Of a DNA stretch of 64,000 nt, positions 60,312 through 64,000 are shown piece by piece (the first letter of the stretch is position 1; every line of letters begins with the position of its first letter). Source of the DNA: a virus; the IMG/VR virus record IMGVR_UViG_3300042396_000450, positions 47,624 through 111,623 of that record. The stretch is one strand, 5' to 3'. Position numbers and translations under genes: made by a program. The notes under the pieces are model-generated. The model was not told where the DNA came from. It made no database searches and was given only the letters and a program-made list of their open reading frames with translations.

Positions 60312-60710
60312 CTATCCTAGTTGTTCCAGCATTTTAATCTTCTCTTCCTTACTTAATTCTTTAAGTTGTTTAAGGTCATCTTCATGTATTGCTTCTAATA
60401 ACTGTCGCTTCAGTTGAACCTTATTAGCTAATTTAACTCTAGTTGTTTCACGTTCAACAGCTTCAAATGTGAGAGTAGCGTAAACATACTTAATTACTTC
60501 ACGACGTAATTCAAGTTGTTCAGTTAACTGAGATTTAACATCACTTAAACCATCTTCAACTTGTTCGCGCAATTGACGATTAAGTTCCTTATAAGCTACA
60601 TCTAAGTCAGGTAACTTACAGTTATATAAGTCTTCAGTAGATATTAATTTACCGTTAACAGAGTAACGTAATGCTAAACGAACAGACTTTTCGATTAATG
60701 TTGCAGTCAT
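60312..60710 (-). CDS. Coiled-coil hypothetical protein
   Basis: 132 aa; GGAG SD upstream; follows the 660-aa gene. Confidence 0.65.
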   Translation of the reverse strand: MTATLIEKSVRLALRYSVNGKLISTEDLYNCKLPDLDVAYKELNRQLREQVEDGLSDVKSQLTEQLELRREVIKYVYATLTFEAVERETTRVKLANKVQLKRQLLEAIHEDDLKQLKELSKEEKIKMLEQLG

Positions 60711-60772
60711 GAGATTCTCCTAATTGATTGATTAATACACTTTTACTGGATGAGTGTGAACCACAGGAACTG

Positions 60773-62755
60773 TTATACCTTAACTCTCATAGTTCTATTA
60801 CCATTAACTCTAACTACAAAGTTATTACGTAATGTTGAATTAAATCCAACTCCAGATAATTGGTTACTGCAAGATGGTGTCTTTAACTTATCACCAAGTA
60901 CATCAAATACCTTACGACTATGCTGAACTAATTCAGACTTAAGATACTCATTAAAGATAGATCGAGGATTATCTGAATTAACACATCCTTCTAACATAAA
61001 GAGATAGTGTTTTTCACCGATAGCAGTTGTCCAATGATTAGGAGATAAACTAACTAGATTGACCTTATGGAATAAATTAGTCTTAATACCCCATATCTCC
61101 TTAGATGACACACTAGAACCGCTACTATCAAGTGATTTAACAATAGTAAATCCTTTTAATTTGTCGAATTTAACAGTAACTACAGGTATTGTCTCTCCAC
61201 CTCGAAGATTCTTATTATATGCGTAAGAAAAAAGAGTACCATCTATTTCTAATTCAGCAGTAAATCCGCCATTAGATGTACGAGATGAATAGTTATGAAC
61301 AAAGTATGTGTATTCACCATCCAGCATTCGGCGGCGATCTATGTGAACTATGTTCTCTACTGCAACTCCTCTAGGAACGCGTATATCAACGTCCAACGAG
61401 CCACCAGTATTTCTACTAACTTTATTATTGTATGCAATCTCACAATAAAGAGGTTCTCTACAATGAGCATCGAAATCAATAATGTTATTATCATTATCAT
61501 TCCATTGAATACTAAACCTACTAACTACATTATCTACACGTCCACCTGCTGCTTTAACTCTCTCACGCATACTATCAGCATTACCGCCATTGTAAACCCA
61601 GCTAAATGAGTTATCCCACTTAAATAATGTAGGTGCTGCACTATCTACAGCAGTTACTAAACTAACTAAATTACCACTATGGCGCGATTCAAGTAGTAAC
61701 TCAACATTAGTAGCACCAGGTAACACATCATTAATAAACTCATCTATGTTAACTTCATCTAACTTAACTAATGACTTAGGATTAACAGGAACTTCATCTA
61801 ATATGCTATCAAATACATTAGTATTGAGTTTCTGAGAGCGATTAATAAACAGAGCATCATTAACGTTAATATCAGCTTCATTTGCAAATCTCCTATTTAA
61901 TGCAGATTCTAAACCTAGTTCAATTACAAGTTGATTAGCTTCCTCTACTTGTTTCTTAGTAGAGATAACTTGATTAGTTCTCATGTAGTTAGATGGAGCT
62001 ACCATAGCTTCATATTTTCTAACTGCAACATTAATATCAACACTATTAGATAAATCAATTAATAAACTACCTATTGAAGTGTTTCTAATACCTGCAATAA
62101 ACGAACTAGAGTTAATCCAACAATAGTTATCCTTATTAATAGTATCCTTGTATTCTTGTTGATGTTTAAGTAATTCAATTAAACTAGTTTTATTTGATTC
62201 ACCTCTATATAACTGATTTTGTGCAATTAACTCAAGCACTGTTTCAGTTGAATCAATTGATAGTTCATTTAATGCTCGTTTAAATGTTTCCTTCTTACTA
62301 CGTTTATCAGACATCAAGGTATTTTCAGTTAAAAAAGATTGAGTTACTAATGTACTAGGTAACTCATAATAGAGATGTTGCCATTCTACATCAATAGTTA
62401 AACTACGATCTGTACCTAACTTAGATTGTTTAGTTATGAATACATTAGTTATGTTAGATTCACTAACTAACTTATCTAATGCAGCTATAACTCCTGCATA
62501 CATAACGTCATCTACAGTGAAATCCCACATTGACTTAACTTCACCATCTTTAATGGCAACTACATTACCATACTGTTTAATAAACTGTCTACAACAGTTA
62601 CAGTTAAATCCTTGACGTTCATCATCAGGAAACGCATTTAAATAAGCATCCCATAACTCATTCTTATTAACATCAGTTACATATAACCGAACTTGTCCTT
62701 CAATGAGTTTATTGAAGTTACTTTGAAACAATACTTTAAATTCATTAAATTGCAT
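60773..62755 (-). CDS. Large hypothetical phage protein (N-terminal CNCC motif; C-terminal YfaP/DUF2135-like DFDAH...LDVD...VENI segment)
   Basis: 660 aa ORF with AGGAG SD. Confidence 0.65.
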   Translation of the reverse strand: MQFNEFKVLFQSNFNKLIEGQVRLYVTDVNKNELWDAYLNAFPDDERQGFNCNCCRQFIKQYGNVVAIKDGEVKSMWDFTVDDVMYAGVIAALDKLVSESNITNVFITKQSKLGTDRSLTIDVEWQHLYYELPSTLVTQSFLTENTLMSDKRSKKETFKRALNELSIDSTETVLELIAQNQLYRGESNKTSLIELLKHQQEYKDTINKDNYCWINSSSFIAGIRNTSIGSLLIDLSNSVDINVAVRKYEAMVAPSNYMRTNQVISTKKQVEEANQLVIELGLESALNRRFANEADINVNDALFINRSQKLNTNVFDSILDEVPVNPKSLVKLDEVNIDEFINDVLPGATNVELLLESRHSGNLVSLVTAVDSAAPTLFKWDNSFSWVYNGGNADSMRERVKAAGGRVDNVVSRFSIQWNDNDNNIIDFDAHCREPLYCEIAYNNKVSRNTGGSLDVDIRVPRGVAVENIVHIDRRRMLDGEYTYFVHNYSSRTSNGGFTAELEIDGTLFSYAYNKNLRGGETIPVVTVKFDKLKGFTIVKSLDSSGSSVSSKEIWGIKTNLFHKVNLVSLSPNHWTTAIGEKHYLFMLEGCVNSDNPRSIFNEYLKSELVQHSRKVFDVLGDKLKTPSCSNQLSGVGFNSTLRNNFVVRVNGNRTMRVKV

Positions 62756-62979
62756 AACTCTAAGTCTCCTAATTGTGTTAACTCTAAACTAACTTAATTA
62801 ACAATGAATAGTTATCACTAAATCCTGCAAACTTAAATGACTTATAATGGACAAGTTACAGGAACTAAAGCAACTATTAATTGAGCTAGTTGTTTCTTAC
62901 TTAACTAAATATCTCTCTAATTAAGATACTTAGTATACTAAGATACTTCACTAACTCGCCCCTTACACTGTTCTAGGAA

Positions 62980-63370
62980 ATTTAGATAGATCTATCCTAA
63001 ATACCTAACATTACTACTACTAGTAGTCTTTTTAACGTTGCGACTTGTTGTTAACTCAGTGCAACTAATTACTTACCATTGATCCTAACTATTGCTAGGT
63101 GGTGTCACTTGACTTGTCGGGACATTACCTGGTATCTCTAGATGTCCGAACATTGTGCAACCGTGATAGTGACCTTCTTTATGTTTTAGCTCTAGAGCCA
63201 GGACTTTCACCCTGATCACGGTGTAGACTACTGGTGTTCTGAGGTGTCTTGATAAGACCCAGTGCCTACGGAATGAGTAAACCCCTTAAACTCATACTCC
63301 GCATACCAGCCAATACCGTAAACTACGTGACGCAGTATCAAGGGATCTTTCGATATTAGCTAGTAATATC
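62980..63370 (-). ncRNA. Putative large structured noncoding RNA
   Basis: ORF-free, locally GC-richer stretch with at least 7 nested or adjacent stem-loops; strand inferred from neighbours and G-U pairing. Confidence 0.5.
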
Positions 63371-63584
63371 ATAACTTAGTTTTTAATAAATTTACAACTA
63401 AATTATTCAAACAACTTAATACTGAAGGTTTTTGTTCTAGTAACATTTCCTCATATAATTCGACAGCAATATCATATACCGCGCTACGTCGTTGATCTAT
63501 TAACTTATTTTCATGAGCTTGACATTCTTCAGGAGTGTCAAATAACTTACCATCTCTGGATTGATACTTAGTTACTTTTTTCAT
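63369..63584 (-). CDS. Small hypothetical protein (YQSRDGKLFDTPEECQAHE type)
   Basis: 71 aa ORF with AGGA SD. Confidence 0.65.
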   Translation of the reverse strand: MKKVTKYQSRDGKLFDTPEECQAHENKLIDQRRSAVYDIAVELYEEMLLEQKPSVLSCLNNLVVNLLKTKL

Positions 63585-63635
63585 TATCTTAATTCCTGTG
63601 ATGTTTAACTTATTTTCTTACCATGTCAAGATAAA

Positions 63636-64000
63636 TTATTTCAATTTACTGCACATAGCACTACATACAACCCGAAAACCGAAGTTGCCGATGCGGTAGT
63701 CGAGATCGTTGTCGTAGCGAAAAGCAGAACGGCAATTAGCAGGATAGTTGAACCACGAACCACCGCGCAGCAGCTTTCTATTACTACTCTCTTCATTATC
63801 TAGCCATGCGCTACCATCTGTTGGCGCACCTTTATAGTTACTATGCCAACTATCTTGACACCACTCCCATACATTGCCGTGCATATCATATAAACCAAAG
63901 GCGTTGGGCTGAAAAGTTCCTACTGGAGTTGTTCTTCCTCGATATTCTCCCTTGGGGGCATTACCATAGGTGTAGTTACCATCATAGTTTACCTCATTTG
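63636..64000 (-). CDS. FGE-sulfatase (C-type lectin fold) domain protein, C-terminal part; DGR target-like
   Basis: Frame is open to the window edge: [46 protein letters not shown]...RGGSW...CRSA.R...GFRVV. Confidence 0.9.

Follow-up and report, generated by a model that had tools for sequence, protein, structure and literature searches.

A constant GC-rich non-coding block beside a DGR-type target gene in a phage genome, a plausible but unproven structured RNA

The IMG/VR virus contig from which the window comes measures 111,623 bp and has a GC content of 32.2%. The window, its final 64 kb, contains a block at positions 62893-63407 that is clearly non-coding, compositionally anomalous and modular. 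We consider this block to be a real, well-delimited orphan, for which a reading as structured RNA is plausible but unproven. The interpretation that we tentatively favor, at somewhat less than an even chance, is that the block specifies a structured RNA read from the minus strand, either as a stand-alone molecule of ~390 nt or as a long leader. The block includes the hairpin-bearing element that an initial annotation had proposed at 62980-63370, and it lies next to an FGE-sulfatase gene with a hypervariable 3' end.

A non-coding, compositionally anomalous module

Contig G001, which comes from the same phage, overlaps the contig at both ends and thereby closes the circle, which implies a circularly permuted genome of ~121 kb. 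The contig break at window position 64000 falls inside the hypervariable FGE-sulfatase gene, where G001 bridges to the contig start, and it is probably an assembly artefact of population diversity in the variable region (VR) of that gene. On the minus strand the order is FGE-sulfatase gene, 71-aa ORF, 613-nt ORF-free gap and 660-aa gene; all genes adjoining the block lie on this strand, and there is no orientation switch at the block. The FGE-sulfatase gene, which encodes a C-type-lectin fold with a DGR-type VR, is present in the window as its 3' end (63636..64000, minus strand; Pfam E = 1e-28), cut by the contig end, and its full product is 404 aa in L007 (L007:4125-5339, minus strand). Between this gene and the block lies the 71-aa ORF (63369..63584, minus strand), which has a weak PHROG match only and is polymorphic for presence and absence, being missing from L009 and L010; a direct repeat, TGAA(A)TAATTTA, flanks the indel (63395-63410 / 63618-63632).

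The 660-aa gene (60773..62755, minus strand; phrog_1735 / PF26675), downstream of the block, is paired with a ~130-aa gene (phrog_2018) at 60312-62755, and the same pair is found in the Bacillus, Microcystis and Roseobacter phage loci examined (L013-L015). By tblastn the 660-aa gene was matched in 549 phage records, including Ackermannviridae, phiCbK and Bastille-like phages. Three contigs (L005, L022, L023) show 13 substitutions clustered within 73 nt of this gene at 62323-62395, a localized variable patch or small recombination tract. Outside the patch the gene differs by about 0.3% in these contigs, and gene-wide 13-14 of the 18-20 differences are nonsynonymous.

No ORF-free stretch of the 111.6-kb contig is longer than the gap at 62756-63368 (613 nt), and the block has 10-25 stops in each of the six frames, its longest open stretch being 66 codons, which bears out the description of the element as ORF-free. 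The core at 63050-63350 has a GC content of 44.5%, compared with 32.2 +/- 4.0% for the genome (z = +3.1), so that the raised GC seen in the initial annotation is likewise borne out; windows of 300 nt as GC-rich as the core make up 0.6% of the genome, and the other intergenic gaps range from 23 to 38% GC. A second ORF-free stretch, of 366 nt and 38% GC, lies outside the window (G000:C1:19876-20241). Codon periodicity was absent from the block (period-3 chi2 5.2, p 0.52), compared with p <= 0.006 in every equal-sized coding piece of the genome. The open stretches of the block gave no Pfam matches, tblastn of 2106 ORFs from cyanobacterial FGE/DGR loci against the block performed no better than against shuffles, and ARAGORN found no tRNA or tmRNA in the block. 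A decayed gene or recent pseudogene thus found no support, given the stops in all frames, the lack of a period-3 signal and the lack of translated similarity. The genome holds no second copy of the block.

The block is also modular. As judged by alignment and blastn, the segment 62893..63407 (minus strand) is unchanged in all structural variants of the locus, and three independent structural variants have their breakpoints at its edges. In the contigs that lack the 71-aa ORF (L009, L010), homology resumes at about 63407; it stops near 62893, the site of a 233-nt insertion in L009. The stretch concerned in this contig (L009:3630-3933), between the block and the 660-aa gene, replaces window positions 62823-62893, and the extra 233-nt segment possibly contains a tiny ORF. 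Eight copies of the block were recovered from IMG/VR and JGI metagenomes, all from one phage species and at least 99.8% identical, with a single substitution in 515 nt, at 63254. Since the flanks, leaving aside the variable patch of the 660-aa gene, are equally invariant, this conservation is uninformative on constraint.

Predicted helices and folding statistics

All six stems proposed in the initial annotation are present at the coordinates it gave, and the same helices appear in the predicted minimum-free-energy (MFE) fold of the minus strand. Read in the minus-strand direction, the region opens with a sigma-70-like promoter candidate (63368..63397; TTGTAA, 18-nt spacer, TATGAT; 9/12 consensus matches), whose -35 box lies about 10 nt inside the 5' edge of the module (~63407) and from which a transcript would be predicted to start near 63361. 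Sites of this type are no commoner across the region than in shuffles, and we treat the promoter as a lead only. The region further has the stem gatatta/taatatc (63352-63370), a minus-strand-specific 15-bp helix of the MFE fold that includes three G-U pairs and encloses a small hairpin (63305..63365), and a hairpin with an 11-nt loop (63267..63304; GCGGA..AUGAGU / ACUCAU..UCCGU), which corresponds to the annotated stem tacggaatgag/ctcatactccgca (63267-63303) and needs a G-U pair on the minus strand. The small hairpin gtctt/aagac (63246..63258) holds the sole polymorphic base of the block, 63254, in its loop-closing pair.

Further along, a three-way junction (63161..63221) is closed by CCGUGAU/AUCACGG (ccgtgat 63161-63167 / atcacgg 63215-63221) and contains a GNRA hairpin, the palindrome GCUCUAGAGC and an A-rich single strand. 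The minus-strand CAGGG motif that had been placed within the closing helix does lie there, although its pairing is better written as CAGGGU-GAAA-GUCCUG (63199-63214), a 6-bp stem with a GNRA tetraloop. The junction is followed by the hairpin ggacat/atgtcc with a 16-nt loop (63120..63147) and by the hairpin gttgcgact/agtgcaac (63037..63065), both seen in the sequence and in the MFE fold on the minus strand. An AT-rich palindromic hairpin that precedes a UUU (62981..63003, minus strand) could possibly serve as a weak 3' end for a stand-alone transcript, an assignment that we infer from the sequence, the hairpin having gone unscored in a terminator scan that found no intrinsic terminator in the region. 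A leader that sequesters a Shine-Dalgarno sequence was rejected, the pairing probability of the latter being 0.44 compared with 0.67 in shuffles.

Folding energy is modestly better than that of shuffles and is not exceptional for this genome. The whole element gave z = -2.4 on both strands (-2.2 / -2.6 in a repeat), and among random 391-nt windows of the genome 3/17 reached z <= -2.3, against a background mean of -0.7 (sd 1.1). Within the GC-rich core, 150-nt windows ranged between z = -1.5 and +0.5. Two parts stand out on the minus strand: the 5' domain at 63255-63410 (z -3.57; 0/200 shuffles as low) and the AT-rich 3' part at 62756-63010 (z -3.27, beating all 200 shuffles). The plus strand over the same two parts gave z values of +0.4 to -1.3, with z +0.41 for the window overlapping 63305..63365. 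The expectation that the element would be more structured than shuffles thus holds weakly for the whole, which does not stand out from the genomic background, and more clearly for the two sub-regions on the minus strand.

For a non-coding stretch to reach 45% GC in a genome of 32% GC implies either recent foreign DNA or a composition held by selection. GC-rich non-coding islands in AT-rich genomes are a classic signature of structural RNA, and this signature has been used for finding ncRNAs in AT-rich archaea and bacteria. Because RNA structure is the classic reason for selection on GC, the composition of the block favors a structured RNA, and the helices that depend on G-U pairs favor the minus strand. 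At the same time, the equally GC-rich FGE gene adjoins the block, and the composition could therefore simply reflect co-acquired foreign DNA.

Under the structured-RNA reading, the block would be a lineage-specific non-coding module that acts as an RNA read from the minus strand. Transcription would start at the promoter-like site at 63397-63368. It would yield a folded RNA of about 390 nt in its own right, with an end near the hairpin at 62981-63003, or else a long leader that runs into the phrog_1735 gene and has the block as its 5' part. Transcription itself, the strand used, the end point and the importance of the fold are all matters that we infer. As for its role, our guess would be that it acts as a regulatory or decoy RNA of the phage, not as a ribozyme.

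Origin of the block and its relation to the diversified neighbor

The main rival reading, somewhat less likely, is that the block is passenger DNA: it would have come in together with the horizontally acquired FGE gene, which is richer in GC, would have no function, and would have still to decay to phage-like AT richness; its source would be the 3' flank of the donor gene or what is left, in scrambled form, of the avd-RT-TR part of a cyanobacterial DGR cassette. The GC content of the block matches that of the adjacent FGE domain (44-48%), and where the 71-aa ORF is missing the block starts about 40 nt past the FGE stop codon. In Dolichospermum, avd-like and RT-like ORFs and a TR fill the space after the targets, and folding energies lend little support to a structured core, which would also suit a functionless sequence. 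However, the block shows no nucleotide or translated similarity beyond shuffled controls to 79 cyanobacterial FGE/DGR loci, and BLAST against 401 Nostocales-order genomes returned short AT-rich chance matches only. Nor does it retain residual codon periodicity. Moreover, the FGE gene has been swapped between strains (69-100% identity) next to a block that stays constant, which argues that the two are not one inseparable unit.

Other searches for relatives gave a consistent picture of an orphan. A covariance model of the central domain found one 19.7-bit match in 151 Nostocaceae genomes, antisense to a gene start and attributable to chance; a host origin of the block thus found no support in these genomes or in the 401 of the order Nostocales. 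The phages database contained no DNA match to the block. By nhmmer and a covariance model, the block was not found upstream of phrog_1735 homologues at 80+ distant loci, and the idea that it is a general companion of the phrog_1735 gene was dropped, the other phages having short upstream spacers. Relatives of the 660-aa protein at 78-91% identity exist (P0002-P0010), and the metagenome and IMG/VR scans returned relatives only at 98% or <50%.

It is improbable, more so than a passenger origin, that the block works at the DNA level, as a promoter or operator of the downstream array, as a 3' homology arm for exchange of the FGE cassette, or as a replication or packaging site. Such a role would fit the palindromes and direct repeats at 62900-63000, the recombination breakpoints located exactly at the block edges, and the juxtaposition of highly divergent upstream FGE alleles with a constant block. 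The operator-like repeats are, however, in the AT-rich part, which leaves the GC-rich 330-nt core still to be explained, and this core has no iterons or repeats, no GC-skew inflection and no switch in gene orientation. A DNA-level role may possibly apply mainly to the AT-rich, palindrome-bearing part. The AT-rich spacer that precedes the 660-aa gene (62756..62980, minus strand; fold z -3.27), in which the palindrome CTTAGTATACTAAG is flanked by direct repeats, is probably a DNA-level regulatory sequence.

The neighboring gene raises the question of a connection to DGRs. Across contigs that are >99% identical elsewhere, the last ~100 nt of the FGE gene keep a fixed scaffold and vary at NNC/NNT codon positions, and one contig carries the FGE gene body of the window with a VR of a second scaffold family. 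Judged by this pattern of variation, the FGE gene is a true DGR-type target, in line with the DGR-like target that the initial annotation had placed beside the element. The VR scaffold of the window is near-identical to VRs in 191/301 sampled Nostocaceae genomes, which points to a Nostocaceae host, and we regard this family as the probable host of the phage. The identity of the FGE domain to Nostocales proteins reaches 72-74%. The closed ~121-kb phage genome contains no RT, Avd or TR: searches with PF00078 and PF05635 at E <= 1 were negative in G000, as were searches with PF00078 in five overlapping contigs, G001 among them. Taken together with the shared scaffold, this suggests that the VR is either rewritten in trans by a host DGR or replaced by repeated capture of finished VRs.

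As the initial annotation had stated, the element contains no TR. Smith-Waterman comparison of both strands of the element with six VR variants gave scores of 9-12, at the level of the shuffle means of 9-11, and blastn with the inferred TR retrieved only VRs. With the element at shuffle level against the VRs and with no adjacent RT or Avd, we rejected a DGR template repeat. On present sequence evidence, the block shows no link to the DGR system beyond adjacency.

We consider it very unlikely that the block encodes a DGR accessory RNA, that is, a TR- or spacer-like RNA or a cis element that aids a host-encoded DGR in rewriting the VR of the phage in trans. In favor of this, the block comes immediately downstream of a genuine DGR-type target, a position at which avd, TR and RT are often found in cassettes, and the VR does vary among near-identical genomes of a phage that has no RT, Avd or TR of its own. 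However, the block has no VR or TR similarity and no counterpart beside host targets or TRs, it is missing from four further viral contigs that share the VR scaffold, and the 71-aa ORF can put 270 nt between block and target. A similarly long shot is the proposal that the block specifies a phage RNA of ~390 nt and of a new class, which is carried along with an orphan DGR target gene and takes part in a cross-genome relationship with the host DGR; such an RNA might recruit or modulate the host RT-Avd/TR machinery that would rewrite the variable region of the phage.

Should an RNA really be made from the block, a phage of bloom-forming filamentous cyanobacteria would carry a structured RNA of fair size that belongs to no described class, located beside a receptor-type gene that is apparently diversified by a retroelement foreign to the phage, and this RNA would be a candidate player in an unusual host-phage coupling.

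Known RNA families and comparison with known systems

At gathering thresholds, Rfam 15 (4227 models, including RNase P, group I and group II introns, tmRNA, 6S, GOLLD, ROOL, HEARO and cyanobacterial and cyanophage motifs) gave no match in the whole window, which agrees with the judgment of the initial annotation that no family could be assigned. Relaxed searches (E <= 10) returned RAGATH-17 (RF03095) as the sole match in the element, at 23.1 bits compared with a gathering threshold of 102.3, and the resemblance lies in the three-way junction at 63161..63221 (E about 1-3). This candidate was rejected: the central 50-nt segment of RAGATH-17 is missing from the element, and a scan of IMG/VR with the tail pattern led to 32 unrelated, mostly coding loci without the hairpin. 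No match to the group I intron (RF00028), to the group II intron or to RNase P was obtained at E <= 10 with relaxed filters in a 411-nt search.

The initial annotation had also likened a loop of the element to group II intron and RNase P-type elements. What resemblance there is comes down to a hairpin of a common type, capped by GAAA: GGUGAAAGUCC forms a generic GNRA hairpin, and the 18-nt hairpin CAGGGTGAAAGTCCTGGC is identical in the element and in a group I intron on the unrelated contig L006. That intron scores 62.4 bits with RF00028 and thus provides a positive control for the negative Rfam result on the element. It lies at L006:1052-1238 (minus strand) on a GC-rich IMG/VR contig, where it seemingly interrupts a reading frame.

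The least probable of the alternatives, to which we give almost no weight, is that the element is a divergent known catalytic RNA, whether a group I or II intron, an RNase P RNA or a small self-cleaving ribozyme, since the identical 18-nt hairpin of a phage group I intron and some motifs that by eye we take to resemble RNase P CR-I and CR-II are set against the lack of any such family at E <= 10 with a library that does detect the L006 intron, the lack of exon context between flanking ORFs that are complete and of which one is dispensable, and the lack of a tmRNA or tRNA by ARAGORN.

For the tentatively favored reading, a minus-strand structured RNA, comparison with known systems places the element as follows. 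Like the template RNA of a DGR, as in Bordetella phage BPP-1, it lies downstream of a target with a C-type-lectin fold, here an FGE-sulfatase gene, but it contains no TR sequence, the phage has no RT or Avd, and there is no similarity to host cassettes. With group I introns of RF00028, such as that of L006, it shares the same exact 18-nt hairpin, whereas it has no detectable P3-P9 core and no Rfam score and is not inside a gene. No model of the GOLLD, ROOL, HEARO/omega RNA or RAGATH motifs matches the element, yet it resembles these RNAs in being phage-borne, several hundred nucleotides long and multi-branched by prediction. GC-rich structural-RNA islands differ from the element in that it belongs to no family and an equally GC-rich foreign gene adjoins it; like these islands, it is ORF-free, lies ~13 percentage points above the GC content of its genome, and combines multiple hairpins with a GNRA tetraloop.
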